This document shows, piece by piece, positions 124 through 52,618 of a DNA stretch of 52,618 nt; the first letter of the stretch is position 1; every line of letters starts with the position of its first letter. The notes beneath the pieces were generated by a model. It worked only from the letters and a program-made list of their open reading frames with translations, did no database searches and was not told where the DNA came from. Origin of the DNA: a virus. A program made the position numbers and the translations under genes. The stretch lies in the IMG/VR virus record IMGVR_UViG_3300009826_000007, positions 1 to 52,618 of that record. The stretch is one strand, 5' to 3'.

Positions 124-715
124 ATAAATTTTGCGAAATAAGTTCAAGCACCGTTCTGACCGCATCGGGACGTATTTCCTTGAACGCACGTTGGTAAATG
201 TCGGCCAACGCTTGGTAATAGGCCAATTCGCGGCTAAGCGCCTGATTTCCCTCGACAACAAACTTTTTGTTGACATCAATGTAAAAATGGTTGAATGTTG
301 TTATACTGCCATCCTCGTTTCGTTTGTAATTACAATTTATTCCCACTCTGTCCTTGCTGCACAGTGCTAAATTATTAATTGTATAGTGGCGGTTAACAAA
401 ATTATGCATGTTTTCGGCTACAATACCGAATATTGTGTCGGCAACACCTGATTTATGACAAACGTCCCATATTGTTGTGTATTTTTCGCCATGTTTGTAC
501 AACACAACATTGCCAATGTTCTGAATGAAATGTCTACAGGCGGTACAATTGTATTGCTGTGGTTCCCGAAATGAATCCAAATAACACTTCCATAATAAAT
601 CTTTGTCAATTTTTACACGAACCAATGTATAAATGTCTGGATGTGCTAATGCTAACCGTTCCATTTCGCTATATTTTTCTGCTACTGCTTCCGTAAAAAT
701 TTGAAAATCGTCCAT
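1..715 (-). CDS. 5' part (about 238 codons) of a 677-aa ORF that crosses the contig junction (715->1, then 52495->51177); function unknown
   Basis: ATG at 715 with AGGAG 10 nt upstream and an in-frame TAG further upstream. I checked every codon from 715 to 97 and found no stop. The Met codon at 97 is the same codon as 52592, the track start of the 471-aa ORF. Contains a CTACRHF Cys pair. Confidence 0.8.
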   Translation of the reverse strand, partial: MDDFQIFTEAVAEKYSEMERLALAHPDIYTLVRVKIDKDLLWKCYLDSFREPQQYNCTACRHFIQNIGNVVLYKHGEKYTTIWDVCHKSGVADTIFGIVAENMHNFVNRHYTINNLALCSKDRVGINCNYKRNEDGSITTFNHFYIDVNKKFVVEGNQALSRELAYYQALADIYQRAFKEIRPDAVRTVLELISQNLLYRGIEFKNMLLTYLTHFDYSHDAWIHVGNTPESVLRIKNS

Positions 716-1575: not shown

Positions 1576-1614
1576 GTATTTATGCTACCTCCTTTCATAC
1601 ATATATACATACAT

Positions 1615-1643
1615 ATTATATCTGTGTGCTAAACACATGTAAA
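1615..1643 (-). promoter_or_regulatory. Sigma70-like promoter for the leftward operon
   Basis: The minus strand reads TTTACA-17 nt-TATAAT. The -35 is at 1643-1638 and the -10 at 1620-1615, about 40 nt upstream of ATG 1575. The spacer contains a TGTGT/ACACA dyad. Confidence 0.55.
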
Positions 1644-1746
1644 AATATGGAAATAGTTGGAGTCGATTAGAATCGTTTTCATCTGCCAAATCATGTCCGT
1701 CAAACGTAAAAGAAAATCCTTTAATGCCTAGCAAAAATGCGATTGA

Positions 1747-1813
1747 GTTAGTCATAGCTAACTCGAGTTAGTGCCAACTAACTTTGAAATGGTGACGGTT
1801 AGTCATGACTAAC
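1747..1813. promoter_or_regulatory. Three 16-bp operator-like inverted repeats GTTAGT-N4-ACTAAC
   Basis: Site sequences: 1747-1762 gttagtcatagctaac; 1767-1782 gttagtgccaactaac; 1798-1813 gttagtcatgactaac (perfect palindrome). Centre spacing is 20 and 31 bp. Confidence 0.6.
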
Positions 1814-2430
1814 TAGAATGGTAGTTAATGGTAAACGTGATGAAATGTATAAAAAGTATAGTTCCCTCTCATGATTATGCCATCCAGCTTTTTCCATGTG
1901 TTTGTTTGCCATATTTGACATATTGTACCATTTTATGCATTTGTTTACATTCTGATAACATGTTGATTATTTTTTGCTCACTTGTCTGTTGTACAGGCTA
2001 CTACATACACTATATACATATATACATGTGTATAGATATACATATATACTACCATATAACGTATGTAGTAGATATATGGTATATGTATAGTGATATATAC
2101 ACATATTAGTACTATATATACACACATATATATGTATATAATGTATGTATGTTTATAGCCGTGTACTGGAATTCTGGAACAAATTCACTCATGATTTACC
2201 GTGCCGAAATTCTATCACACAAAATCCGAAAAGTAAATTGCGTTGGTCAAACTCATTTTTGTCATGCTTGAAGGGTAAGTATAAGGGTATAGACATATAT
2301 GCATAAACGTATTAAGTTGTAGTTATAGGGTTTATAGGCATTTAAAGGGTGTAATGATACACATGTGATACTTGTGCAACATGAAAATCTTTTATAAATT
2401 TCCCATTTCGCACGAAAAAATTTGTCAGAC

Positions 2431-2497
2431 TATTCCATATATGGTTCGTATGTAAGGACATGACCCTCGTCTTTACATACGAACCTTATATGGAATA
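2431..2497. repeat. Long inverted repeat (about 25-27-bp arms, 13-nt loop)
   Basis: ttccatatatggttcgtatgtaagg pairs with ctttacatacgaaccttatatggaa. There is one mismatch and one G-T pair. Confidence 0.9.
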
Positions 2498-2580
2498 CAC
2501 CACAACATTTTTTGACAAAATATGGCATAATTTAGTAGATATGAGCCAAATATGTCATATTTTTCCATATATATGTGTAC

Positions 2581-2630
2581 CGCCCCCCGTCCTGCCGCCG
2601 CCGCCGGGCGCACACCTCCCCCATCCACTC
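2581..2630. other. Isolated GC-rich island in an AT-rich non-coding region
   Basis: cgccccccgtcctgccgccgccgccgggcgcacacctcccccatccactc has 41 of 50 G+C by my count. Confidence 0.85.
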
Positions 2631-2845
2631 AATCCATATATATAAATACCTCCCAAAAATTTCGGACATACAAAATAACATTCATGTATATATTTCACGA
2701 GTACCAAAAATATTTCGATATAATGATTGCTATTACATTTTCCATGATATACAATATATTGTAATTAACGGGCGCTATCTCCCATACATTGTACTAACGC
2801 CTGTTAATTTCTCTTTTGTGCGTATTTGGTGGAGTGCATTTGGTG

Positions 2846-2892
2846 AAAGGCAATGTACGCATGGCGTTGTGTACATTGCCTTTGACTTTTTC
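2846..2892 (+). terminator. Perfect 13-bp stem hairpin followed by a T-rich tract (intrinsic-terminator-like, plus orientation)
   Basis: aaaggcaatgtac (2846-2858) pairs with gtacattgccttt (2871-2883), followed by gactttttc. No annotated gene lies upstream. Confidence 0.4.
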
Positions 2893-3338
2893 GTCATAAA
2901 TTTCGAACGTACTTCTACATGCAAACATACATGTATGTCTGTACTCACATACAAGCATACATATATACATATATACATATATACAAGCATATATACATAC
3001 ACATCCATGTAAATACCCCAAGCTCATATATATTCCAAGCATATATTTATATATAGGCATGTCTACACGTAAAAAATACATTCCACAAATTTCGAACACA
3101 ATCAATCAGATATGTTGATATATATTTCGAGTATCAAAAATTTTTCGAGGAAAGATTGTATATATATTCCGGGTATCATATAATGGGGTTGGGTATTCAG
3201 GTATATGCTCAATCAGCCCTCACTGATTTTATATGTTTTATATGACAATTACGTTAGTTCGCCATAACTAATGTAATTGTTTAGGCACAGCCATTCTCCA
3301 AAGCTCAAAAACAAATATATTTCCACAATCCTACAATT

Positions 3339-3397
3339 TAGCGCATATTAAACTTTTTCGTTAAGCAATTCCGAAAACGCTTAATATGCGCTATTTT
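3339..3397 (+). terminator. Hairpin/attenuator-like structure just upstream of the first rightward ORF
   Basis: tagcgcatattaa (3339-3351) pairs with ttaatatgcgcta (3381-3393). There is an inner ttttcg/cgaaaa stem, then tttt. ATG 3424 lies 30 nt downstream. Confidence 0.4.
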
Positions 3398-3423
3398 GCT
3401 TGTAATTACGAAAGGGAACAAAA

Positions 3424-33471: not shown

Positions 33472-34581
33472 TCAGAAATTCACAACACGCTGTATAAACT
33501 TTTCCATTTTGATCCCGGATTCTTTTTGCATTCGTTCCGTCACATGCCCATAGGTATCCAATGTAAACGCCACAGAATGATGTCCCAAGCTTTCCGCAAT
33601 TGTTTTTATGTCTACCCCAGCTTGTATGGCAGAAACGGCATAACTATGGCGTAAATCATGGAAGCGCATAGAGGAATAGCCAATTTTCTCAACTATTTTT
33701 TTAAAATTTCGTTGTACAGTAACAGGCGTGAAGTGTTTGCCGTTTTTGTCTGTAAACACAAAACCCTCTTGTCTGATTCCCAAAACACTAAGTTTTTTTA
33801 TAACATAAGGAGCCATTGTTACCCACCTTGATTTGCCACTTTTCGGCAAAATCAGCTTATAATTAGCGCCTTTTTCAATAGGTTTTTGTAACTGTTTACT
33901 AATATTTATACGCCCATCCGAAAAATTTATACAATTCCACGTTAGCCCCAAAACTTCTCCTAAGCGCATACCAGTAAATAATGTCACAACAAAAAGAGTT
34001 TCAAGTTGGTGGCCCTCTATTTCATTTAAAAATGTAAAAATTTGAGTGTCGTCTAAAAACTGCATTTCTTTTTTTGTATTTTTTGGCAAAACACAAGCGT
34101 CTGTCGGGTTTGTTCTGATATACCCAATATTAACCGCCTGGCCTAATGATTTGCCTAATACCGAATGGACAAGTTTTACTGACCTATCTGACAAACCCTT
34201 TTCGCGCAAATTATTATAAAATTGCTGTATCATGCCGGGGGTAAGAAGCGCAAGCCTGACAGCGCCTAAAACTGGTATAATATGATTGCGGCAATTATTT
34301 TCGTAAATGCGAGCGGTAGCGGGTTTTACTGACACGATATAATCTTTTATCCACATATTAATCCATGCCCCAATGGTTAATTTTGACGGGCTAATAAATG
34401 TTCCATCGTCAATCGAAGCTATAATCTGTGTCAACTTTTGACGAACCTCTTTTTGTGTCTTGCCATAAATGGATTTTTGGATTTGTTTACCTGTTCCCGG
34501 GTCGCGTCCTACAGTGTAGCGAGCTTCCCAGTTTCCGTTTTTTCGTTGGCGTATGCTTCCCGCGCCCTGCATATTACGCAT
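33472..34581 (-). CDS. int: Tyrosine recombinase / phage integrase
   Basis: The arm-binding-like N-terminus reads GSIRQRKNGNWEARYTVGRDPGTGKQ. Catalytic residues are in GMRLGEVLGL, HDLRHSYAV, GHHSVAFTLDTYGHV. The likely start is ATG 34581 (track start 34626). Confidence 0.92.
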   Translation of the reverse strand: MRNMQGAGSIRQRKNGNWEARYTVGRDPGTGKQIQKSIYGKTQKEVRQKLTQIIASIDDGTFISPSKLTIGAWINMWIKDYIVSVKPATARIYENNCRNHIIPVLGAVRLALLTPGMIQQFYNNLREKGLSDRSVKLVHSVLGKSLGQAVNIGYIRTNPTDACVLPKNTKKEMQFLDDTQIFTFLNEIEGHQLETLFVVTLFTGMRLGEVLGLTWNCINFSDGRINISKQLQKPIEKGANYKLILPKSGKSRWVTMAPYVIKKLSVLGIRQEGFVFTDKNGKHFTPVTVQRNFKKIVEKIGYSSMRFHDLRHSYAVSAIQAGVDIKTIAESLGHHSVAFTLDTYGHVTERMQKESGIKMEKFIQRVVNF

Positions 34582-34834
34582 TATTATCATTCTCCATTGC
34601 AATTTTATCCATAACAACCGCAACATCTAAAATTACATCATCAAACGGGCGTATTACCCCATTGTCATCATACAACCTAACCCCGATTCTGTTTACGGCG
34701 GTTTTTATTTTTTCAGTTGCGCTTGAACCGTCAATAAAAGCCCAATCTATGTCTTTGTTTTCAAATTCTTTTTCTAAATCAACACATCTGTCCACCAAAT
34801 GTTTTCTAAAATTAGTAATATCATCATGTGTCAT
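34574..34834 (-). CDS. Hypothetical acidic protein (86 aa)
   Basis: ORF immediately upstream of int. Confidence 0.5.
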   Translation of the reverse strand: MTHDDITNFRKHLVDRCVDLEKEFENKDIDWAFIDGSSATEKIKTAVNRIGVRLYDDNGVIRPFDDVILDVAVVMDKIAMENDNNA

Positions 34835-34889: not shown

Positions 34890-35573
34890 TTAAAAAGCAT
34901 CAAATAAACTACGCATCTTTTCCGTTTTTTGCGTGTCCGTTTCGGTATCCCTTTCGGTGTCCTTTTCGGTGTCCTTTTTGGTGTCCATTATGGTTCCCTC
35001 TTTTGTACCTATTTCGGCACCCATTTGCGTTCCCATTTTGGCATCCTCTTTGATACCCATTTTGGTATCCGTTTTGGCAAGTTGTTGCATTTGTTGCGCT
35101 ATTTGGGGCGTTTTTTCAACAAAATCCCGTTTGGTATCATTTACGGTGTCCATTTTGGTTCCCTTTTCGGTATCCATTTGAGTATCTTTTTTGGTGCCCG
35201 TTATGGTATCTGTTTTAGTTCCCTTTTCGGTGTCCGTTATGATACCATTTTTAGTATCCATTTCAATGCCCATTTGCGACTGATTTACAGCCGCAAATGA
35301 GTTAATTGTGTAAACAGTGGATTGACTTCCCTTACGCGTTTCATATTCAATCAGACCCAACGCCTGCAATTCATTCCTGGCAACCCAGATTACCTTTCTG
35401 CTAAGGCTGGTCTTAGATTCAAGCACGGAAAGCCTTAGTTCAAAAGTGCATTGCCCACGTTTGTATGCGAAAAGTGCTAACGTATGCCATAAATTGATAG
35501 ATGAATGACGTACAGACCGCGCTTCCCTAAAATTGTCAAACGCTAATGTCTCAAAAATAAGATCATAATCCAT
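34890..35573 (-). CDS. Winged-helix-like N-domain plus a D/T/K tetrapeptide-repeat tail (candidate ParM adaptor)
   Basis: The N-terminus is SLSRKVIWVARNELQALGLIEYETRKG. The tail is DTEKGTKTDTITGTKKDTQMDTEKGTKMDT...DTEKDTERDTETDT. It lies directly downstream of the parM-like gene. Confidence 0.65.
   Translation of the reverse strand: MDYDLIFETLAFDNFREARSVRHSSINLWHTLALFAYKRGQCTFELRLSVLESKTSLSRKVIWVARNELQALGLIEYETRKGSQSTVYTINSFAAVNQSQMGIEMDTKNGIITDTEKGTKTDTITGTKKDTQMDTEKGTKMDTVNDTKRDFVEKTPQIAQQMQQLAKTDTKMGIKEDAKMGTQMGAEIGTKEGTIMDTKKDTEKDTERDTETDTQKTEKMRSLFDAF
34933..35285. repeat. 12-bp periodic tandem repeats (consensus GTRTCCnTTTYG), two blocks
   Basis: Twelve consecutive units span 34933-35076, for example gtgtccgtttcg, gtatccctttcg, gtgtccttttcg. 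A second block spans about 35133-35285. All three plus-strand frames are open here. Confidence 0.85.
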
Positions 35574-35581
35574 AACTATTC

Positions 35582-36574
35582 CTATGCCTTTTTGCTCATC
35601 TGGTTGTATGCCGCCAAATAACCCTTTGCGTTAGCAAAAATATCATCCTCAAAATATGCATCACCTATCATTCCGGTGTCTAAAATATATTTTTTTAATG
35701 CTATTGCACCACCGCCAACAAAAATTGTATAATCTTCGCGTAAGTCAATACCCTGTTGAGATACCGCTGCTAGTAGCTTCACGGTTAATTTTTGTGTGAG
35801 ATCAAAAACAAGTGCCTGTCGCTCGTTTGAGCAGCCATTTAGGGATTTGGCCTTTTTCTGAATAATGCCCTCAATGTTGCTATCCGTCATTCTTTTCCCT
35901 ATTTTTGCGTTAATTCGGCTGTTTACCTCGTCCAACAATATATTAACGCCAATGTACAGGGATTCCACTATGTCTGGTTGTCCGTTATTAATTCGTATGC
36001 AATCCACAGTGTAACCGCCTATGTCTACAATGTTTACAGTGTCACGACTGTCAACAATAGCCCATAGGTGGTTTAATGCTGTTGTGGCAACGCCCTGGGG
36101 ATAGACATGCACGTTGGTGATTTTTATAATCATGGGTGTATCGTTAATACGAAAACTAATTTGCTTGCCTTCACGTTGGAAATATTTTGCAAATTTTGCG
36201 CCGATTTCCTTTTTGTGCATTGGCGGTACCCCAACCAACAAATCAATTTCAACATATCCATCCTGCACCATTTCCTTATAACAATTCAAATCGGCTAAAA
36301 CTTGCTTCCCGATGGCAAACAATGTCAACAAAAAATAATCATCATCGGCGGTCTTGTCATCTTTTTGGTAAAATCGGCAGTCTACTAACGTGTATTCTTT
36401 GCCATTAAAATCTAATCTATCGCCGCCATGACTGCCCTGGATGGTGCTATCAATAAAACTGGATGCAAAATTAATACAAATCAATTTGCCTTTTTCCCCG
36501 GGCAAGCTGGTTGACAATGCGCTACACGACTTTGTGCCTCTATTGCCGTGGTCTATTGCTACTATTTTTTTCAT
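35582..36574 (-). CDS. ParM/Alp-family actin-like segregation ATPase
   Basis: Actin-fold motifs are AIDHGNRGTK (phosphate 1), VDIGGYTVD (phosphate 2) and FVGGGA (adenosine). Confidence 0.8.
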   Translation of the reverse strand: MKKIVAIDHGNRGTKSCSALSTSLPGEKGKLICINFASSFIDSTIQGSHGGDRLDFNGKEYTLVDCRFYQKDDKTADDDYFLLTLFAIGKQVLADLNCYKEMVQDGYVEIDLLVGVPPMHKKEIGAKFAKYFQREGKQISFRINDTPMIIKITNVHVYPQGVATTALNHLWAIVDSRDTVNIVDIGGYTVDCIRINNGQPDIVESLYIGVNILLDEVNSRINAKIGKRMTDSNIEGIIQKKAKSLNGCSNERQALVFDLTQKLTVKLLAAVSQQGIDLREDYTIFVGGGAIALKKYILDTGMIGDAYFEDDIFANAKGYLAAYNQMSKKA

Positions 36575-37136: not shown

Positions 37137-37835
37137 CTATTTGGCTGATTCCCCGTAAAGTTCATTTGCTAGTTTGATGTACAAAAAATATTCGTCAATA
37201 TATTTTTCTGCATTAGCCTCTTTTGCTATAGCTTTATAAGATTTTAACCATTCTTCAAGTGTGTGAATTTGACATCCAATTTTCAACTTGTTTCTGGATA
37301 CCATACATACAGACATCCTTGAGCCTTGAATATACAAGGGGGAAGTTCTCCATATGTCCTTATTCACCCACGCCGAGCCGGTTACATACGTCGAGTCGCA
37401 TATACGCGCCGAGCCGAATACACGCGCTGAACCGGATATACGCGCCAAGTCGGATACACGCGCCAAGTCGGATACACGCGCCGAACCGAATACACGCGCC
37501 GAACCGAATACACGCGCCGAACCGAATACATGCGCCAAACCGGATACACGCGCCGAACCGGATACACGTGCAAAGTCGGATACATGTGCCAAGTCGGATA
37601 CATGTGCCGAGTCGGATACACACGCCGATTTGGTTGCAACCGCTAAATTGGATACAACCCCATCATCAGCAACCCATGCTTTATCTAACAAATTGTATTC
37701 GGATTCAATCCAACCGCCAATATCTCCGGCACTAATCGTAAAAGCCCCATTTTCAAATGAATTTACGCATCTAATGCGCTGCACTAGTCTCCCATTTACT
37801 TCTTTAGTTTCGCCCGTAAACTCCCATTTTTTCAT
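37137..37835 (-). CDS. Beta-helix (hexapeptide-repeat) protein, paralog 1
   Basis: The N-domain is MKKWEFTGETKEVNGRLVQRIRCVNSFEN...GDIGGWIESEYNL. About 15 hexapeptides follow (GSARVF, GSARVS, DLARVS...). The C-domain is unique (PLYIQGSRMSV...IGCQIHTLEEW). Confidence 0.8.
   Translation of the reverse strand: MKKWEFTGETKEVNGRLVQRIRCVNSFENGAFTISAGDIGGWIESEYNLLDKAWVADDGVVSNLAVATKSACVSDSAHVSDLAHVSDFARVSGSARVSGLAHVFGSARVFGSARVFGSARVSDLARVSDLARISGSARVFGSARICDSTYVTGSAWVNKDIWRTSPLYIQGSRMSVCMVSRNKLKIGCQIHTLEEWLKSYKAIAKEANAEKYIDEYFLYIKLANELYGESAK
37369..37638. repeat. About 15 tandem 18-bp repeats (cgcgccgaaccgaataca-type) encoding the hexapeptide beta-helix
   Basis: Units were read off at 18-bp steps from 37369. 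Three consecutive units are identical (37477-37530). Confidence 0.9.
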
Positions 37836-40071: not shown

Positions 40072-40220
40072 GTGCAGCGCCTGGTTTGGACACGCTGCAA
40101 CTGTTCTAATGTTTCGCGATGTCGTTCAACATCCATTGACACCATTGTATACCATAAATAAAATGGTGTCAAGCGTTTTTTTTAAAAAAATTAACTTTTT
40201 TTGCTGGAAATTTTTTGAAG
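40072..40220 (-). promoter_or_regulatory. Repeat cassette copy 1 (palindromic promoter/operator plus leader hairpin)
   Basis: - The core 40118-40202 is identical to the other two copies.
- Inverted repeat ttgacaccatt (40136-40146) / aatggtgtcaa (40162-40172).
- Minus strand TTGACA-17-TACAAT; plus strand TTGACA-17-TAAAAT.
- GC hairpin gcagcg...cgctgc. Confidence 0.7.
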
Positions 40221-40227
40221 GATTTTT

Positions 40228-41124
40228 TTATGCGTCCAAAAGTTCAAGCAATGCCTTTTTGTTTTCCATGCCATTGTGAATGCGCCAACTTTTTCCAGTA
40301 ACTTCAAAATTCGCACAAATTTCGACAATCCGATTGTAAATTCTGTCGGATGTATCGCGTTTACCGGTTCGTGCATCCACTATGGATAAATTTTCCCGCA
40401 ACTCGTTTAGATCCAAATTGGTTGTGACGATAAGCGGTTTTTTTGCCCGTGAGCGTGTATCTATAACACTGTAAATTTTTTCATATGACCAATATGATTT
40501 TTGTTCAATGCCTAAATCATCCAAAATTAGAAGTTCGGCATCGCGGATCGCGTTAAGTATTTCAATCTCTCGGACATTTTCATTACTGCCATATTTTACA
40601 TAACCGTCCTGAATGATTTTTAAAATTCTGCCTGCAGAAATAGCCAAAACTGTTACGCCTCGTCGGTGCAGTTCGTTAGCAATTGAATACGATAAATATG
40701 TTTTTCCATTGCCGGATACACCATGCAAAAGTAACCCGCGATTATTGGCAAAAATTTCAGGCCATTTATCACAATATTTTTTCCCGATGTCGTAGAGTTT
40801 TTGATTGTCCCTAAAAATCCAATTGTCAAAGGTTGAGTTCTTAAAATTTTTGTCCGCAAGCGAATATTCACGATAACGATCCAATTTTCTGTCAAAATCC
40901 CGTTGCGCTGTTATTCGCCTGATTTCGTCAAATTCTGCCCGCTGACATTCACATGCAATTCTCATTCTGCGAATAAAATCACCAATTTTGATGTCTGTTT
41001 GCATCGGTTTAAGGCATTCGTCACAAATTTCAATCGGTTTGTTAAATTTTTGTTGATGTGATACATGCATATTCATCTGGTTCATTATTGGCATTTCTGC
41101 CAGAATTGCTCCCACCGAATTCAT
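40228..41124 (-). CDS. DnaC/IstB-like helicase-loader ATPase
   Basis: Walker A is LLLHGVSGNGKT and Walker B is ELLILDDLG. The N-terminus has Cys pairs. The start is uncertain because it overlaps the upstream gene. Confidence 0.8.
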   Translation of the reverse strand: MNSVGAILAEMPIMNQMNMHVSHQQKFNKPIEICDECLKPMQTDIKIGDFIRRMRIACECQRAEFDEIRRITAQRDFDRKLDRYREYSLADKNFKNSTFDNWIFRDNQKLYDIGKKYCDKWPEIFANNRGLLLHGVSGNGKTYLSYSIANELHRRGVTVLAISAGRILKIIQDGYVKYGSNENVREIEILNAIRDAELLILDDLGIEQKSYWSYEKIYSVIDTRSRAKKPLIVTTNLDLNELRENLSIVDARTGKRDTSDRIYNRIVEICANFEVTGKSWRIHNGMENKKALLELLDA

Positions 41125-41923
41125 ATACTTTTCCTCCTTTTGTTTTTATTTGATCCCAAACAATACCCTGCCAATTATTGGACATGCAATTATTAATGGC
41201 ATCAATAACGGCATTTTCCCCAAAATCGGCGGCGTTTTTCTGGATTTTATTTAACAACGATTTTAATCCCGTGGGTTTGTACGCTAAATTTTTTTCGGTT
41301 TTATATTGCAAAAAATTATCCACAGCATCGCCTAACGAATCGCTAAAAACGTAATTATTGCGTATGTCCGCAGTCTTTTCTTTGTCTTTTTTTGGAAAAT
41401 TTTTAGGTTTATTCTCCCTCCCCCCCCCAAGGGGTTTATCTTTAATATCTAAACCTAAACCTAAACCTAAACCTAAACCTGGGGCCCCCATTCCGGTTCC
41501 ATGTTGGTTCCATTCTGGTTCCATTCCGGTTCCATCCTGTCCCCATTCCGGTTCCATTCCGGTTCCATGTTTTAAATAATAACAACCTTCAATTTCATGC
41601 AATAATTTTTTTTCGTTTTGGTGTATGGTCGGGTTATATCGGTCTTTTTTTATATAATTGTGTTGCTTCCAGTGCGAAATAACAACAACTCCGCTGTTTA
41701 AACCGTGGTCATCGAATGAAATAATAAAATTTTTATCAGCTAACACTTTCAGGTCATCACTATTCGCCCCAATCATACGGGCAATGGCTTTTGCGTTTCC
41801 TAAAAAACCATCGTCATCGGCCCGCATGTTTAGATCATAATATAATAAACGTGCAGCCATCGGCATATCCATAAAATCATCTGTGTTAATTTTATCCTTT
41901 GCGATCATCCGTCTACCTGCCAT
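41042..41923 (-). CDS. Replication initiator / replisome organizer (DnaD-like C-terminal domain)
   Basis: The N-domain is MIAKDKINTDDFMDMPMAARLLYYDLNMRADDDGF. A repetitive linker follows (GTGMEPEW repeats, GLGLGLGLGL). The C-terminus is AVIDAINNCMSNNWQGIVWD. It lies upstream of the DnaC-like gene. Confidence 0.7.
   Translation of the reverse strand: MAGRRMIAKDKINTDDFMDMPMAARLLYYDLNMRADDDGFLGNAKAIARMIGANSDDLKVLADKNFIISFDDHGLNSGVVVISHWKQHNYIKKDRYNPTIHQNEKKLLHEIEGCYYLKHGTGMEPEWGQDGTGMEPEWNQHGTGMGAPGLGLGLGLGLDIKDKPLGGGRENKPKNFPKKDKEKTADIRNNYVFSDSLGDAVDNFLQYKTEKNLAYKPTGLKSLLNKIQKNAADFGENAVIDAINNCMSNNWQGIVWDQIKTKGGKVYEFGGSNSGRNANNEPDEYACITSTKI
41495..41566. repeat. Iteron array 1: GGTTCC at exact 11-bp phasing inside the organizer gene
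   Basis: GGTTCC occurs at 41495, 41506, 41517, 41528, 41550 and 41561. A degenerate GTCCCC occupies 41539. Confidence 0.9.
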
Positions 41924-42978: not shown

Positions 42979-43857
42979 TTATCCAAAACAATATTGTGTT
43001 GCGCCCCACGATTCCATCAAATAATTATTAACATCGCCAAATGTGTATTCGGCTGGATTAAAAATACAAACATCGCCATTTTCGCAGAAACTAAGTATCA
43101 CATCGATGTCGTCATCACTGCCACCATATTGGTGAATTAATTTAATTAAATTTTTCTTGTATTTCATTCGCGTTACAAAGTACAAGTAATCCATTTTGTA
43201 TCCTGTTAATGTTTCGCATTGCTTCGCGTCATAACCTGTTAATGCTTCGACTGCAAAATGCTTTCGGATTTCACGCAATGACATATTTGCAAAATACTCG
43301 TCTTTGATTATATAACATTTTGATTTTTGCGCGGGTTCAGCGCCCAGAGATGTTTCCGGCGTATCATCATCATCGGACACCCGCATATTACCGCACACCT
43401 GCATGTTTCCGCATATTTCCGCATGGCCGAACACCACGCCATTATTACACACCACTGCATTACCATATACCTGTGAATCCCCGTACACCTGCGAATCCCC
43501 GTACACCTGCGAATCCCCGTACACCATTGAATTATTACGTACCACCGCATTATCGAAAACCCACGCATAATCGAAAACCTGCGAACAATCGCGTACCTGC
43601 GCATCACCGCACACCCACGAATCACCGCGTATCCACGCATCACCGGACGCTATCGCGTTATCGAACACACACGCATCACCGGACACCCACGCATTTTCAA
43701 TTAAATTGTCCTCAGACTCGATCCAACCGCCTATTTCCCCGGTATCAACAGTTACATTTTTATTTTCAAATGAATTTACGCATATAATGCGCTGCAATGT
43801 TCTGCCATCTAATTTTTTTGTTTCGCCCGTGAATTCCCAATTTTTCATTTTCGCCAT
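42979..43857 (-). CDS. Beta-helix (hexapeptide-repeat) protein, paralog 2
   Basis: The real start is MAKMKNWEFTGETKKLDGRTLQRIICVNSFEN, after AAAAGGAG. The track ORF runs upstream through the promoter cassette. Hexapeptides include VYGDSQ x3. Confidence 0.8.
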   Translation of the reverse strand: MAKMKNWEFTGETKKLDGRTLQRIICVNSFENKNVTVDTGEIGGWIESEDNLIENAWVSGDACVFDNAIASGDAWIRGDSWVCGDAQVRDCSQVFDYAWVFDNAVVRNNSMVYGDSQVYGDSQVYGDSQVYGNAVVCNNGVVFGHAEICGNMQVCGNMRVSDDDDTPETSLGAEPAQKSKCYIIKDEYFANMSLREIRKHFAVEALTGYDAKQCETLTGYKMDYLYFVTRMKYKKNLIKLIHQYGGSDDDIDVILSFCENGDVCIFNPAEYTFGDVNNYLMESWGATQYCFG

Positions 43858-43888
43858 TTTATTTTCTCCTTTTCTCATCCTTATGTGT

Positions 43889-44025
43889 GGTGCAGCGCTA
43901 GGTTTGACACGCTGCACCTGTTCGCGATGTCGTTCAACATCCATTGACACCATTGTATACCATAAATAAAATGGTGTCAAGCGTTTTTTTTAAAAAAATT
44001 AACTTTTTTTGCTGGAAATTTTTTG
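43889..44025 (-). promoter_or_regulatory. Repeat cassette copy 2
   Basis: The core 43926-44010 is identical to the other copies. The inverted repeat is at 43944-43954 / 43970-43980. It lies 32 nt upstream of ATG 43857. Confidence 0.75.
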
Positions 44026-44035
44026 CTGGTTTGTT

Positions 44036-45025
44036 TTAATATTGCCCAATAATCCCATTTGCTTTTAATGCTGCGAAAATTCGGACTAAGGAACCCTTGA
44101 AGCCTATAACATCGTCCGGGTCATGCTCGCCTGTTAACCTTTTTGTTTCGCGTAACTCGTCCCGGATTTCTTTGGCGATGTCTAATTCGAACCGCACGCC
44201 CCGGAATATATCTTCTTTGAGTTTTTGTATTGCCTGTTCACAGTTTATTTCCGTCATTTTGATGTGCATTTTTGCGCCCTCGCGAATGTTGGCTATTTCT
44301 TCGTCTTTGGCAGATAATTCTGCTTCAAATTTTTTGTTGTTGGCTACAATTTCCGCATTGCGATCTATTCTATTTGTATCGTGTAGACGGCTGATTCTAT
44401 TACTTATTTCGGTTCTGCGATCCATCGTCTCTTTAATTCGCGCATTTTCTGCCTTCAACTCACGGATTTCGGCCTCTTGGCGCTCGATCAATCCCTCACA
44501 TCCAATGATTTCGGGTGCAGGCGTGTTATCATTTAATTGTCTAACGCCATTTTTATATATTGTGAGTTCAACTGGTTTTTTCGATTGCATGGTTTTGTCT
44601 GGCAAAAATTTGTATTGAATCCATTTGTCGTTGCCACCAATTTCACAATTGCCGCCTGCTGTATTAATCACCGACGCGTTGCCGGTTATTTTAGAATCCC
44701 AAATTTCCGATTCGTGGACAGCTGCAGAATTGTCAACAGTTGTGTTGATTATTGATGTATTTTTTGCAATAAATGCACAACCGTAAACCATAGAATCGCT
44801 ATCCAACCACGCGTTATATCGCAAATTGGCATCAATTTGAATCCAACCGCCCATTTCCCCGGTTTTAACAATCACGTTTTTATTTTCAAATGATTTTATG
44901 CAATGTATTTGTCGCAATCTTATTTTTGCCAGCCCCCCTGTAATTTTACAGGGGATTGACACTATTTTTGTTTCGCCCGTATAATCCCAGGTTATTCCTC
45001 TGTTTGATTTTTGCATTTTCGCCAT
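44036..45025 (-). CDS. Beta-helix N-domain protein, paralog 3, with a C-terminal coiled coil
   Basis: MAKMQKSNRGITWDYTGETK...IHCIKSFENKNVIVKTGEMGGWIQ, followed by a long charged helical region. Confidence 0.75.
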   Translation of the reverse strand: MAKMQKSNRGITWDYTGETKIVSIPCKITGGLAKIRLRQIHCIKSFENKNVIVKTGEMGGWIQIDANLRYNAWLDSDSMVYGCAFIAKNTSIINTTVDNSAAVHESEIWDSKITGNASVINTAGGNCEIGGNDKWIQYKFLPDKTMQSKKPVELTIYKNGVRQLNDNTPAPEIIGCEGLIERQEAEIRELKAENARIKETMDRRTEISNRISRLHDTNRIDRNAEIVANNKKFEAELSAKDEEIANIREGAKMHIKMTEINCEQAIQKLKEDIFRGVRFELDIAKEIRDELRETKRLTGEHDPDDVIGFKGSLVRIFAALKANGIIGQY

Positions 45026-45061: not shown

Positions 45062-45203
45062 GTGCAGCGCCTGGTTTGGACACGCTGCACCTGCTCAAAC
45101 GATGTCGTTCAACATCCATTGACACCATTGTATACCATAAATAAAATGGTGTCAAGCGTTTTTTTTAAAAAAATTAACTTTTTTTACTGGAAATTTTTTG
45201 AAG
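45062..45203 (-). promoter_or_regulatory. Repeat cassette copy 3
   Basis: The core 45101-45185 is identical to the other copies. The inverted repeat is at 45119-45129 / 45145-45155. It lies upstream of ATG 45025. Confidence 0.75.
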
Positions 45204-45216
45204 GTCTGTTTTTCCC

Positions 45217-45465
45217 CTATTTTGCGCGTTTTTCCATATATTCAACCAATGCGGGGGTCGCCCGCCATGATACGGCACCCGTCATGTTTACCGCCCCGAT
45301 GTCAATCAATGTGGTGAAAATGTCAAACATCAAATAACGGTCGATGTTTAATAATGCTGGGGAACGTGCAGCTTTTAACGTTACATTGCCCGCTGTGATG
45401 AAATTGGGTAATTTTGGGTATCGGTCAAACAATATTTCCAGTCGTTCAATATTTTTTTCATCCAT
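45217..45465 (-). CDS. Hypothetical (82 aa)
   Basis: ORF overlapping the stop of the MCM-like gene by 8 nt. Confidence 0.55.
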   Translation of the reverse strand: MDEKNIERLEILFDRYPKLPNFITAGNVTLKAARSPALLNIDRYLMFDIFTTLIDIGAVNMTGAVSWRATPALVEYMEKRAK

Positions 45466-47338
45466 TTATTTTATTTCCCCCGTCTATTTGTTCGATTATA
45501 TCAATCAGTATTTTTTCAGGTCGATAAGTGGAGCTGGATTGGATAGTTATTAATTTGCGTTTAATCATGTTAACCAGTATTTGCGATCCAATAATTTGAG
45601 TTGTTTCATTATTTAATGCGTTTAAGAAATTTATTCCCCGGAATATGGGTGTGGTTAATATTGCCTTCACGCCTGGGTGCAATTGTAAAAGTTCACGTAT
45701 GAAAATAATATTTTGGTTTCGTATTTCGCGCATTCGTTTTAATTCCTGCACGTAAATGCTGTAACTCATAGACCGTTTGGACAAACAAAATTCTAAAAAT
45801 TCAATGGCAAAATTTAGGTGTTTTTCTACAATTATGAGCTGTCCGCCTTTTATCGACCCCAATAATACAGCGAAAGCGCATGATAATCGTAGTAATTTTT
45901 CATGTGCCGTCATGCCAACAATAAATGGGGTTCCGCCCATTTCATCGTTAATGTAATCGGCGGCATCGTGCAGGTTATTTTTAAAATTATCATCGTAACA
46001 AATGTCGTTGGCCGCCATTGTCCACGCCTGTTTTATTAACGTCCGCCAATTGTCTACATTGATTTCGTAAAAATTTTCAATTTTTTCAAATGTATTTGTA
46101 TTTGTATCTAAATCTACATCTAAATCGCTGTACGCGGCGGAAATGACTAAATCAAATTGTGATTGTCCTTTGGCATTTGGAATAAAATCCTGAAATGCGC
46201 CGTATCCCTTCCAGAAAAAATCCTGAATGTCTGCATTATTTTTGGGCGTGGCCAACCAAATTAACCGGGTACGTGTTTTCGCCTCGCCCTGCACGATGCC
46301 ATCGAATGCGATTGATTCCGTATTGCAGGCATTTACAATATTTCGGATGTCGTATGGATCGATCCTGTTGGCATTCCCAATTGCCAATAACCCACGGTCA
46401 TTATTCGGAAACGCCCCCCATGTGACAAATTTTGATTGGCCAAATTGTTGTGTTTTCCCAATAATGTTGGTTTCCCCATTTGTATATTCGCCCATCCCGA
46501 TTACATCCACAAAACGCTGCACCATTTGTGTTTTGCCAATTTTTGTATCACCGATACAAATTGTATTTAACCGCCCGCGAATAGTTTTATTTTCCCACGG
46601 AATCCTGTCCACAGAACAATATGTCAAAATCATAGCGCCAAATAAATCAATACGCCCCTCGATTTCTAATACTGGCAACCATTTTTTGTAAAAAAATTCG
46701 AAAAGTTCAATGGCGCTATTCGCCGCATTAGCAACCGCCTGGATGCTGGCTAATTCTTTTTTCCGTAAAAGTGGCGCAAATTTTCCGGGCCGATCAAGCC
46801 GTTTGACATCACGAATTAAATAACATTCCATTTTTGTGTTAGGGTCAACAACTTTCATAGCTGTCAAATTATATTTTCGTGTCGGAAATAACCGTTGCAT
46901 TTTGTGTACATACATACCAAATTTGCATTTGTCAGCGGGCGAAGCCATGTTTTGAAAAACAATTTTTTGTACATTGGTATATTCAATCGGCGTTATTTTT
47001 ACTTTCTCGCATCTGAATTTTTTTTTCGCAAATTCACGCCATGCCCGCGCCCCGCGATTAACATAATCAACTGTGTTTTGAATTGGCAAAATTATAATCT
47101 CTTCTTTTTTGAATTTTGGGGCCAATATGCATTTTTTCCTGCAGTTTTTTATTTTGCATTCGCATTTAATTTTTGTTGGAATAACATAATTTTCGGGGTC
47201 TACGCCGATAACTGTTACGTTGTCAAATTTGATTCGGCGGGTTGTTTTTTCTGTTGTTTCAACAATATCATCATTCAAATTGCCTTGTCCTCCTTTCGGT
47301 TCCGGTCTGGTTCCATTTCGGTTCCGGTCTGGTTCCAT
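45458..47338 (-). CDS. MCM-like AAA+ protein with an N-terminal Zn/OB-like region
   Basis: GDTKIGKTQ corresponds to the MCM Walker A, and ...TRLIWLATPK to the sensor region. SQFDLVI sits where MCM has SRFDLIF. CECKIKNCRKKC is a Cys cluster. An alternative start is TTG 47278 after AAAGGAGG. Confidence 0.6.
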   Translation of the reverse strand: MEPDRNRNGTRPEPKGGQGNLNDDIVETTEKTTRRIKFDNVTVIGVDPENYVIPTKIKCECKIKNCRKKCILAPKFKKEEIIILPIQNTVDYVNRGARAWREFAKKKFRCEKVKITPIEYTNVQKIVFQNMASPADKCKFGMYVHKMQRLFPTRKYNLTAMKVVDPNTKMECYLIRDVKRLDRPGKFAPLLRKKELASIQAVANAANSAIELFEFFYKKWLPVLEIEGRIDLFGAMILTYCSVDRIPWENKTIRGRLNTICIGDTKIGKTQMVQRFVDVIGMGEYTNGETNIIGKTQQFGQSKFVTWGAFPNNDRGLLAIGNANRIDPYDIRNIVNACNTESIAFDGIVQGEAKTRTRLIWLATPKNNADIQDFFWKGYGAFQDFIPNAKGQSQFDLVISAAYSDLDVDLDTNTNTFEKIENFYEINVDNWRTLIKQAWTMAANDICYDDNFKNNLHDAADYINDEMGGTPFIVGMTAHEKLLRLSCAFAVLLGSIKGGQLIIVEKHLNFAIEFLEFCLSKRSMSYSIYVQELKRMREIRNQNIIFIRELLQLHPGVKAILTTPIFRGINFLNALNNETTQIIGSQILVNMIKRKLITIQSSSTYRPEKILIDIIEQIDGGNKING

Positions 47339-47380
47339 TTCGGTTCCATTCTGGTTCCATTCTGTCCCCGTTCCGGTTTC
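47298..47380. repeat. Iteron array 2: GGTTCC at exact 11-bp phasing at the 5' end of the MCM-like gene
   Basis: GGTTCC occurs at 47298, 47309, 47320, 47331, 47342 and 47353. Degenerate units follow at 47364 (GTCCCC) and 47375. The 24-mer at 47353-47376 matches 41528-41551 with 2 mismatches. Confidence 0.9.
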
Positions 47381-47387
47381 GGATATT

Positions 47388-47422
47388 AAAAACGCCCTAA
47401 GCGGGCGCGGTTGTTTTTTTTA
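47388..47422 (-). terminator. Short GC hairpin flanked by A and T runs (bidirectional-terminator-like)
   Basis: The minus strand reads A8-caaccg-cgccc-gctta-gggcg-TTTTT. It lies about 30 nt after the stop at 47440. Confidence 0.4.
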
Positions 47423-51176: not shown

Positions 51177-52618
51177 CTAAAATAATATTTTTAACAGCCG
51201 TGTAACATTGCCGTGTGATTTAACGATAACGCTTTCCCGTTTCGTGGACGAGAATCCCAATCCCGAAAGCTGATTTTTATTATATGGTACTGTCATTTTG
51301 CCGCCTAATATCTCAAAAACTTTTCTATGTTCGTTTAATTCTTCGATTAAAAATTCGTTAAAAAACCCGCGTGTTTCCTTTGGATTTCGGCAACCCGCCA
51401 TCATAAATAAAAAATGTTTGTTTCCGACAGCAGAACCCGGCCAATAATTGGGCGATAAACACATCAAATTTACCCGTTGCATGGTCTGTGTGTGAATATT
51501 CCACACTTTTCGGACTGACTCACCGGACGGTATGAAAGATTCCAGTATTTGGAAACCCCCCGCCTTATCCAATTCAATTTTACAAACGGGTACGAATTCG
51601 CCATGTTTGACAGGTTTTTCGTATTTGAAATTATGAATTTTCCCACACAATTCCAGTTCGACTTCGAATCCTGTGTCATCGGCGGAACGCGAGCGCTTGC
51701 TAAAATTGTTTACTACCAGCGTGTAAATGCCTTTTTTCATGCTCTTGACATTTTGATAAAAAATATTTTCCACAGCATCATTAACGAATGGGTCGTGGGC
51801 ATTCATATCAACATCCAATTGCCCGCCATATGGTGATTTTTTTGCGCCATAATATATCCGAAATTTATTTGGTTCAATCAAATGTAAATCCAAATCATTG
51901 TAATTATGCCATGACAAACTGGCACGAAAATCACCCGTCACATTTCCACCTGCCGCCTTCACACGCTGTTTAATTGAATCTGTGGCATCCCCGTTATATG
52001 TCCACGTGAAATTGTTTGACCATTTAAACAAATGGCGCTGTGGGGCATCCTCGCGTGTTTCGGGGGCAATCAGCGAGACTAGGTTAGGAATGTGTTTACT
52101 CTCAAACAAAATTTCTAATTCGGTCGTATGCGGTAAAACATCCCGGACAAACCTGTCAATTTTGATTTCTGTCGGTTGTGTTCCGCCCGCGATATATTTC
52201 TTGGGTTTTGTAGGCGCGAGACCGTCAAATCCGTTATTTTGCGCCTTTATTTGTGTGGAACGGTCAACAAATAACATGTTATTGACTGAAATATCATCCA
52301 TACGCGCATGACGGCGCGTCAACATGGCGGTCAACCCCAATTCCTCGCATTTAGATTTTGCGGAATCAATCATCGACTGTGTAATTAACGCCGTGGGTCG
52401 TTTGTAATTTTCCGGTGCAACCATTTTTTCGTATTTGCGGACGGCTATTTCTAATTCTTCCCCGCCGCTCAAATCCAAAAGCAATGCACCGATAACACTG
52501 TTCTTTATGCGCAAAACGGATTCGGGTGTGTTTCCAACGTGAATCCATGCATCGTGGGAATAGTCGAAATGAGTGAGGTAGGTTAATAACATATTTTTAA
52601 ATTCTATGCCGCGATACA
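51177..52618 (-). CDS. 3' part of the junction-spanning 677-aa ORF
   Basis: The frame stays open upstream of the track Met (52592) to the window end. Contains LSWHNYNDLDLHLIEP...GGQLDVDMN, which resembles a YfaP/DUF2135-type beta-sandwich as I recall it. Confidence 0.8.
   Translation of the reverse strand, partial: YRGIEFKNMLLTYLTHFDYSHDAWIHVGNTPESVLRIKNSVIGALLLDLSGGEELEIAVRKYEKMVAPENYKRPTALITQSMIDSAKSKCEELGLTAMLTRRHARMDDISVNNMLFVDRSTQIKAQNNGFDGLAPTKPKKYIAGGTQPTEIKIDRFVRDVLPHTTELEILFESKHIPNLVSLIAPETREDAPQRHLFKWSNNFTWTYNGDATDSIKQRVKAAGGNVTGDFRASLSWHNYNDLDLHLIEPNKFRIYYGAKKSPYGGQLDVDMNAHDPFVNDAVENIFYQNVKSMKKGIYTLVVNNFSKRSRSADDTGFEVELELCGKIHNFKYEKPVKHGEFVPVCKIELDKAGGFQILESFIPSGESVRKVWNIHTQTMQRVNLMCLSPNYWPGSAVGNKHFLFMMAGCRNPKETRGFFNEFLIEELNEHRKVFEILGGKMTVPYNKNQLSGLGFSSTKRESVIVKSHGNVTRLLKILF
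52496..52618. repeat. Second copy of the 123-bp terminal overlap
   Basis: Identical to 1-123. Confidence 0.97.

Follow-up and report, generated by a model that had tools for sequence, protein, structure and literature searches.

A candidate r1t/Tuc2009-type replication origin of 11-bp-phased iterons in the linker-coding part of a phage replisome-organizer gene, and a second iteron array at a truncated primase-MCM junction

In phage lambda, iterons lie in the part of the O gene that encodes the inter-domain linker, with the N-terminal domain of the protein binding them and the C-terminal domain recruiting the helicase loader. The r1t protein Pro11 reportedly gives footprints on hexanucleotide repeats within its own gene. 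ORF11 and ORF12 of r1t were presented in a 2022 paper as the Rep2009 homologue and a DnaC-like loader, and Rep2009 of Tuc2009 and ORF13 of TP901-1 bind direct-repeat regions of their own genes that serve as origin (PMC8965321). SPP1 has one site, oriL, inside gene 38 and an intergenic one, oriR, both bound by G38P (PMC6316719, PMC5737612), and different roles have been proposed for the two (PMC6316719). Among plasmids, the Rep protein of pSK41 comprises a winged-helix N-terminal domain of ~120 aa, a linker that can be dispensed with and is encoded by the origin, and a C-terminal domain specific to the host, with four Rep boxes located centrally in the gene (PMC5703833). Here we describe the window, which is the whole 52,618-nucleotide stretch of viral DNA that was analysed (IMG/VR record IMGVR_UViG_3300009826_000007, positions 1 to 52,618), in which a replisome-organizer gene carries, in its linker-coding part, an array of hexamers phased at 11 bp (array 1) and a short-period AGGTTT tract. 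We propose that array 1 and the tract quite probably constitute a theta origin of the r1t/Tuc2009 type, located in the linker-coding part of the initiator gene. The features of this locus are as follows.

41042..41923, minus strand: replisome organizer gene, 293 aa, assigned from PHROG, BLASTP and an AlphaFold2 model
41549-41923, minus strand: predicted N-terminal DNA-binding domain of the organizer (residues 1-125)
41408-41548, minus strand: disordered linker of the organizer (residues 126-172), predicted local distance difference test (pLDDT) <50
Residues ~180-248, minus strand: helical C-domain of the organizer, from the AlphaFold2 model
41495..41566, minus strand: array 1, seven iterons spaced at exactly 11 bp; the coding strand has GGAACC six times and GGGGAC once
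41445..41480, minus strand: (AGGTTT)x5 then AGATAT, encoding GLGLGLGLGLDI; a 6-bp variant of the AGGTW pentamer tract of the family
41420..41428, minus strand: G9 homopolymer (C9 on the plus strand), encoding GGG in the linker; candidate slippage site
41567..41625, no strand assigned: moderately AT-rich flank of array 1, weak candidate unwinding element
40228..41124, minus strand: DnaC/DnaI/IstB-like AAA+ helicase loader gene, directly downstream of the organizer gene

An earlier note on this DNA had claimed six GGTTCC hexamers and one degenerate unit phased at 11 bp, and we confirm this from the sequence, from Tandem Repeats Finder (TRF) and from shuffled sequences. On the plus strand, GGTTCC starts at 41495, 41506, 41517, 41528, 41550 and 41561 and GTCCCC at 41539; all seven units share a register of 11 bp, and across 41488-41571 TRF reports a period of 11 with 7.4 copies and a period of 33 with 2.5 copies. 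The whole window contains 36 copies of GGTTCC against 17.45 +/- 3.6 expected, a count that 0 of 100 shuffles reached, and 12 of the 36 fall in array 1 and a second array (array 2), considered below. When GGTTCC is chained at exactly 11 bp, the longest run comprises six copies in the real sequence versus one across 300 shuffles. When the whole window was scanned without a preset motif for 11-bp-spaced chains of any 6-mer (four or more units, at most one mismatch), the sole outputs were array 1 and 47298-47358. The first 123 bp (1-123) are identical to the last 123 bp (52496-52618), so that the 52.5-kb genome assembly is complete, and circular or terminally redundant; as the window is a complete circular assembly, the two arrays therefore represent the full complement.

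Array 1 encodes residues ~120-146 of the organizer linker, and its translation in the open reading frame (ORF) 41042..41923(-) is GTGMEPEWGQDGTGMEPEWNQHGTGMGAPGLGLGLGLGL. The coding-strand GGAACC is read in turn as G-T, E-P and (W/R)N, which produces the 'GTGMEPEWNQ' peptide, and the frame is kept only by a 33-bp super-period, the same that TRF returned as the higher-order period within the organizer gene. Because 11 is not a multiple of three, the period of array 1 reflects a constraint at the DNA level, not a protein repeat. We consider a protein-level origin of the repeat to be excluded by this frame arithmetic, by the copies in non-coding DNA and by the inverted copies in relatives that are described below.

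The identification of the gene as a replisome organizer, also made in the earlier note, agrees with its match to PHROG 5708/8489 'DnaD-like helicase loader' (E 2e-52), with its BLASTP match to r1t ORF11 (E 2e-21, 38% identity in the N-domain) and with the loader gene that follows it. The N-terminal ~125 residues share 45-57% identity with the organizers of Lactococcus P335-group, Streptococcus, Enterococcus and Lactobacillus phages. The C-domain has a weak PHROG 'O-like' match (E 8e-4), and the N-domain is not covered by any O-like match. No model in Pfam or NCBIfam covers the organizer or its N-domain, a PDB sequence search with the organizer gave no match, and we found no near-identical phage among GenBank phages and no close relative of the organizer in the searches, the next best being 42% identical. 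In the AlphaFold2 model, which was built from 82 homologues, the N-domain is confident (pLDDT >90) and the linker is a disordered segment that separates two domains folded with confidence; it is this segment that the iterons and the AAACCT tract encode, in agreement with the earlier proposal that the array encodes a repetitive linker between the organizer domains. The best Foldseek matches of the model, although weak (E 0.1, probability 0.75), are the N-terminal domain of a staphylococcal plasmid RepA_N initiator (4pt7) and its DNA complex (5kbj), followed by winged-helix regulators; Pfam does not report PF06970 (RepA_N) in the organizer. Homologues that share the N-domain differ in their C-domains, which belong to PF07261 or PF09524 elsewhere and to TIGR02220 in r1t, with none detected in the window protein. 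The loader gene matches IstB_IS21 (E 2.8e-13), PHROG 50 (E 4e-54), PRK08116 (E 2e-70) and r1t ORF12 (E 5e-14), and its start codon is uncertain, with the listed ORF overlapping the 3' end of the organizer gene.

Next, we compared the layout across two sets of related loci. The first was ascertained by DNA, through a search of IMG/VR for four GGTTCC at 11-bp spacing, which gave 70 loci; 37 of these encode a window-type N-domain, and in ~30 of the 37 the array starts at the N-domain end. A further seven of the 70 encode SPP1-G38P-like organizers with the array at mid-gene, and ~8 are short pieces of an intergenic origin of the type found at locus L063. The G38P-like loci (L002, L009, L036, L039, L052, L059 and L065) have GGAACC at 11-bp spacing in the middle of the gene, and the N-domains of these seven organizers show no BLAST relationship to the window N-domain. 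The second set comprises 80 loci (L079-L158) found by the N-domain profile alone, and nearly all of them consist of the N-domain followed by 3-5 short cores at ~11-bp spacing. The exact 6-mer chain statistic is too strict for the degenerate iterons of relatives, and autocorrelation and in-register inspection were used instead; a lag-11 autocorrelation of at least 30/44 was observed in 14/80 of these loci versus 0.07% of background windows. After the iterons, at least three tandem AG[GAT]WW pentamers are present in 74/80 relatives versus 4/1411 background windows. The pentamers, AGGTT, AGGTA or AGGAT, follow the iterons whatever the iteron class, and their three-frame reading gives 'RLGKD' peptide repeats; the period of five is also no multiple of three, and we regard the AGGTW tract as conserved at the DNA level.

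The earlier note had held that its claim would be weakened if related phages lost the phasing, and we observe that the relatives hold the ~11-bp phasing and a core, with spacers and encoded peptide varying. Intergenic iterons with a tract are located ~3-5 kb upstream of the organizer gene in L063 (11440-11545), L003, L016, L027, L031, L038 and L060, and the organizer linker in this group is an ordinary Pro/Ala/Lys-rich one that contains no iterons. Thus the origin can leave the gene, since the iterons of the L063 type are intergenic and the organizer gene carries none. In L007, L014, L033 and L044 the iterons are inverted relative to the organizer gene. A search of a plasmid database gave five matches, all 35-58 kb non-mobilizable records, which are probably phage-plasmids.

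The most conserved segment of the N-domain is basic, HWxxHNxI[K/Q/R]xD[R/T]Y (window residues 84-96), and residue 92 within it tracks the iteron core, as listed here by residue, core and number of unique N-domains.

K92: GGAACC; 18/22, the remaining 4 with an intergenic GGAACC array
Q92: G[GT]ATAC(A) type (TAYMCA); 27/33
R92/R95: GTATACC / CAACC type (WAYACC); 25/30
R92/T95: CGTCGAC type (CGTSGAC); 6/13

The K class is not a tight clade, with a mean identity of 52% within the class vs 54% to the Q class, and K92 occurs in 0/76 of the protein-ascertained unique N-domains, though the query itself has K92. The rule is approximate, because the K92 relative L164 uses GGAGCAC/GGAACAC. The complete separation of the classes is nevertheless hard to explain unless the segment with residue 92 reads the core, as the co-variation suggests.

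With regard to the sequences that flank array 1, the earlier note had placed (AAACCT)x5 and a C9 run near the iterons. Both are present; the first proved to be no incidental neighbour but a variant of the family-wide AGGTW tract, and no G9 run was seen in the relatives examined. On the plus strand (AAACCT)x5 spans 41451-41480, for which TRF gives a period of 6 with 5.3 copies at 41449-41480; the AGGTTT tract occurs only once in the genome, and the hexamer variant is also found in the closest full-length relatives, L164, L165 and L166. Slippage at the G9 run would truncate the organizer before its C-domain and leave an origin binder consisting of the N-domain only. Within the AT-rich flank, 41575-41625 is 76% AT and ranks in the top 7.8% least stable of the 51-bp windows of the genome by nearest-neighbour stability. 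A perfect DnaA-box consensus (TTATCCACA) lies at 41316-41324, inside the organizer gene and ~170 bp from array 1, and is one of two in the genome; DnaA-box-like sites are not enriched genome-wide (21 vs 18.7 expected). Far from the organizer gene, the region 1576-3400 is non-coding and rich in TA and ATACATAT repeats, with its least stable part at 2.0-3.0 kb; the two transcription arms diverge here and the GC skew turns, and the region may have a role in control or in packaging or be an alternative origin.

Taken on their own, the repeats are very likely iterons bound by the organizer, and array 1 is probably a functional origin. In the mechanism that we propose, organizer molecules would bind the seven GGAACC-type sites through the segment H84-Y96, with K92 as the specificity residue, and the 11-bp spacing would place the sites on one face of the helix and so favour an oligomeric nucleoprotein complex. 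The flanking region would then melt, the C-domain of the organizer would recruit the neighbouring DnaC/DnaI-like loader, which would load the replicative helicase, and the host would supply the remaining parts of the replisome. What the sequences show is their anatomy, their homology, conservation throughout the family and a protein that co-varies with its DNA; binding, melting, loader recruitment and origin firing are what we infer. The proposal of the earlier note that the same DNA is both initiator site and linker code is supported by the r1t and Tuc2009 homologues, with which the presumed origin function here would agree. DNA can serve both roles because the encoded disordered linker tolerates almost any sequence, and the position of the sites next to the N-domain coding sequence would keep the specificity pair linked during recombination.

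Several points weigh against this interpretation. The genome holds a second array besides array 1, and the period of the window tract is 6 bp, not the 5 bp of the family. Nearest-neighbour stability reveals no strong unwinding element next to array 1, where the flank that scores best is in the top 8% of unstable windows, and the least stable DNA of the genome is the 1.8-kb non-coding region at 1.6-3.4 kb. The GC skew mirrors the transcription arms only and marks no origin. Part of the residue-92 table is not independent, because the K-class loci were ascertained by the DNA motif, and for the binding step in r1t we rely on what Zuniga et al. 2002 reportedly found and on a summary in the secondary literature.

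The second array was overlooked by the earlier note, whose account of the origin repeats otherwise stands for array 1 as described. Its surroundings are listed below.

47298..47380, minus strand: array 2, eight units at exact 11-bp spacing, on the plus strand six GGTTCC, one GTCCCC and one GGTTTC
47392..47408, minus strand: terminator-like hairpin with a T-run, just upstream (minus sense) of array 2 and after the DUF669-like gene
47276..47294, minus strand: Shine-Dalgarno AGGAGG (47289-47294) and, 10 nt later, TTG (47276-47278), located 4 bp after array 2
45458..47278, minus strand: MCM-like helicase gene, 606 aa, aligning solely to residues 327-922 of the fusions in relatives

Array 2 has the same orientation as array 1, and its higher-order period of 22 bp is not frame-preserving, with the 22-bp unit repeated within the array at 95% identity (TRF); there is no AGGTTT tract at array 2. 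Because the odd GGGGAC unit is common to both, the two arrays are duplicates, and array 2 reads as a duplicated iteron-only copy which the organizer should bind. The public gene call for the MCM-like gene starts at an in-frame ATG at 47338, inside array 2; the TTG at 47276-47278 behind the Shine-Dalgarno sequence is the probable true start, and homology to relatives begins at 47260. Array 2 is most likely intergenic. An AT-rich 15-mer direct repeat flanks it, the flank is not unusually unstable by nearest-neighbour stability, and a promoter scan within and adjoining the array returned nothing convincing. In every homologue of the MCM-like protein, MCM is fused to a DnaG-type primase (zf-CHC2 + Toprim) within ~890 aa, and the window gene lacks the primase half; IMG/VR contains no close MCM relatives. 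The nearest related module, L160, has the order AAA_24, DUF669, two small genes, primase-MCM, g82 and PolA, and no organizer. Relative to L160, the window has kept AAA_24 (70% identity), DUF669 (45%), the MCM half (45%) and g82 (62%), whereas its genome lacks the primase half, PolA and ligase that the related module (L160, L161) carries, and the two small L160 genes are also gone. Array 2 sits at the junction where the primase half and the two small genes are gone. From the genes kept and lost, the replication region is a chimera of two module types, in which a remnant of a self-contained primase-helicase/PolA module is joined to an r1t-type organizer/loader module. There are no iterons upstream of the primase-MCM genes in L160 and L161, and no second array of the same core in the 80 relatives (±8 kb), in the r1t genome or in L164/L165.

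These observations bear on the alternatives to an origin at array 1. It could be that the organizer binds both arrays and that array 1 is not the firing origin but an autoregulatory, roadblock or handcuffing site, with initiation at array 2 or in the 1.6-3.4 kb region. This we consider unlikely: array 2 is intergenic and flanked by the terminator and the AT-rich direct repeat, the sole array of L063-type relatives is intergenic, the two G38P-bound sites of SPP1 have been proposed to differ in role (PMC6316719) and the least stable DNA of the genome, at 2.0-3.0 kb, lies where the transcription arms diverge, but the complete module of iterons plus AGGTW-type tract, as in 74/80 relatives, is at array 1 and not at array 2, r1t and the closest relatives have the in-gene array only, the 1.6-3.4 kb region contains no iterons and the flank of array 2 is, as said, not unusually unstable. 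At a similarly low probability, one may speculate about a two-site initiator system on the chimeric module, in which array 1 would be the theta origin; array 2 would then be another origin, or a site of organizer-dependent loading, and link the organizer to the orphan MCM helicase, or else it would act like oriR of SPP1 as a barrier to forks and so start the switch to concatemers; here the AGGTW tract would possibly be a single-strand recruitment track, like the DnaA-trios of bacteria, and not passive linker sequence.

More doubtful still is that the arrays are mainly recombination joints or scars between modules (organizer N- and C-domain at array 1, DUF669 and MCM at array 2), with any iteron role secondary. 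The different C-domains behind a shared N-domain, the location of array 2 exactly where the primase half and the two small genes of L160 are gone and the duplication indicated by the odd GGGGAC unit in both arrays all fit a joint, which would also be compatible with origin function; scars, however, would not preserve exact phasing, perfect cores and co-variation with the protein. Finally, that the repeats are a slippage-expanded, low-complexity protein linker with no function at the DNA level is extremely improbable and, on sequence comparison, already contradicted: it is true that the array codes for a disordered linker, that expansion of tandem repeats is easy and that the 22-bp unit of array 2 is nearly uniform, but an 11-bp period is not selectable at the protein level, the hexamer core is kept in all three frames and across loci where spacers and peptides differ, and arrays also occur in non-coding DNA and inverted, with a core that co-varies with residue 92.

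Elsewhere in the genome, a 227-aa ORF (34890-35573, minus strand) has an HTH_36-like N-domain with weak PHROG matches to replication initiation and DnaD-like proteins, and the coding sequence of its tail contains ~25 copies of a 12-bp unit (TGGATACCAAAA-like), repeated across 34927-35077 and 35130-35263. The gene for an actin-like (ParM/Alp) partition ATPase (35582..36574) directly precedes this ORF, and one for a tyrosine integrase (33472..34626) follows it. The product may be an adaptor for partition whose gene contains the centromere, or another initiator, of plasmid type and with iterons inside its gene, for which the Rep protein of pPR9, with its HTH_36 N-terminal domain, is a comparator (PMC5703833); this ORF and its neighbours hint at a phage-plasmid lifestyle. 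A near-consensus promoter-like element, TTGACA-17-TACAAT, is present in three copies within a repeated segment (40144-40172, 43952-43980 and 45127-45155, minus strand), and the copies at 43980 and 45155 are located at or just upstream of the starts of beta-solenoid genes (42979..43980 and 44036..45025), of which a third paralogue lies at 37137..37835 (PHROG 5070/7964).

Overall, the preferred reading of array 1 as an in-gene origin provides a concrete candidate pair of origin and initiator for this phage and explains the odd repetitive peptide as a by-product of a constraint on the DNA. More generally, residue 92 offers a simple rule of recognition for the initiators of a large family in Firmicutes phages, the AGGTW tract is a second conserved DNA element, and this genome is a case of an iteron array duplicated to a non-coding site. 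With these, sequence alone could help to predict where phages have their origins, which specificities of incompatibility or Per-type resistance they have and how modules are exchanged. The idea that an initiator gene can contain the origin goes back decades, and the hexamer and its spacing are already present in r1t. Three points go beyond the textbook: array 2, sited where the primase-MCM gene is truncated, the recognition rule for residue 92, and an AGGTW tract that is ubiquitous in the family. We regard them as leads and not as established findings.

Among the known systems, r1t shares with the window a homologous N-domain with K92, a GGAACC core at 11-bp spacing directly after the N-domain, a DnaC-like loader gene (ORF12) directly downstream and a short-period purine-rich tract after the iterons. 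The array in ORF11 reads GAATTT-GGAACCGAAAT-GGAACCGAAAC-GGAACCAACTT-GGAACC followed by AGATAAGAATAGATT repeats, with four GGAACC, and is the only such array in the r1t genome. The window differs in having seven units instead of four, two arrays instead of one and a 6-bp AGGTTT tract in place of the AGATA/AGAAT pentamers of r1t, and the C-domains are unrelated (TIGR02220/PF09524 in r1t, none detected in the window). Tuc2009, bIL285 and ul36 also have a homologous N-domain (45.7% identity for bIL285/ul36), and the organizer homologue of Tuc2009, orf16, is annotated 'Rep; contains origin of replication', in keeping with experiments that put the origin inside the gene (PMC8965321). The layout in Tuc2009 and bIL285 is again N-domain, 11-bp iterons, AGGTTAGGTTAGGTAAGGATAG tract and C-domain, with in-gene arrays of CAACC cores at 11-bp spacing, then CAGGATAGGATAGGAGAGGTTAGGTTAGGTAAGGATAG; this group differs from the window in its CAACC core, R92, a different C-domain and the lack of an adjacent DnaC-like gene. 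TP901-1 ORF13 was dropped as a comparator, as it belongs to a different protein family.

The plasmid initiator of pSK41 has the three-part plan of the window organizer and binding sites within its own gene, whereas RepA_N is a plasmid system with semi-palindromic iterons, and the fold match to it is weak, as given above. For lambda and SPP1, the analogies drawn in the earlier note were right about the architecture, without extending to the N-domain in the case of G38P, for which BLAST detects no similarity to the window organizer N-domain. Lambda has four ~19-bp inverted-repeat iterons as opposed to 6-bp direct cores at 11 bp, and its N-domain has no sequence relationship to that of the window. 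SPP1 uses AB boxes where the window has hexamers, has a clear AT-rich unwinding element and encodes G39P and the DnaB-type helicase G40P, in contrast to the DnaC/IstB-like AAA+ loader and MCM-like protein found here. It is nevertheless like the window, with its proposed origin, in the in-gene position at the organizer linker, in short repeats of ~11-12 bp and, at the sequence level, in one in-gene and one intergenic locus; the second array is unusual within its own family, and the only arrangement that it resembles is the oriL/oriR pair of SPP1.

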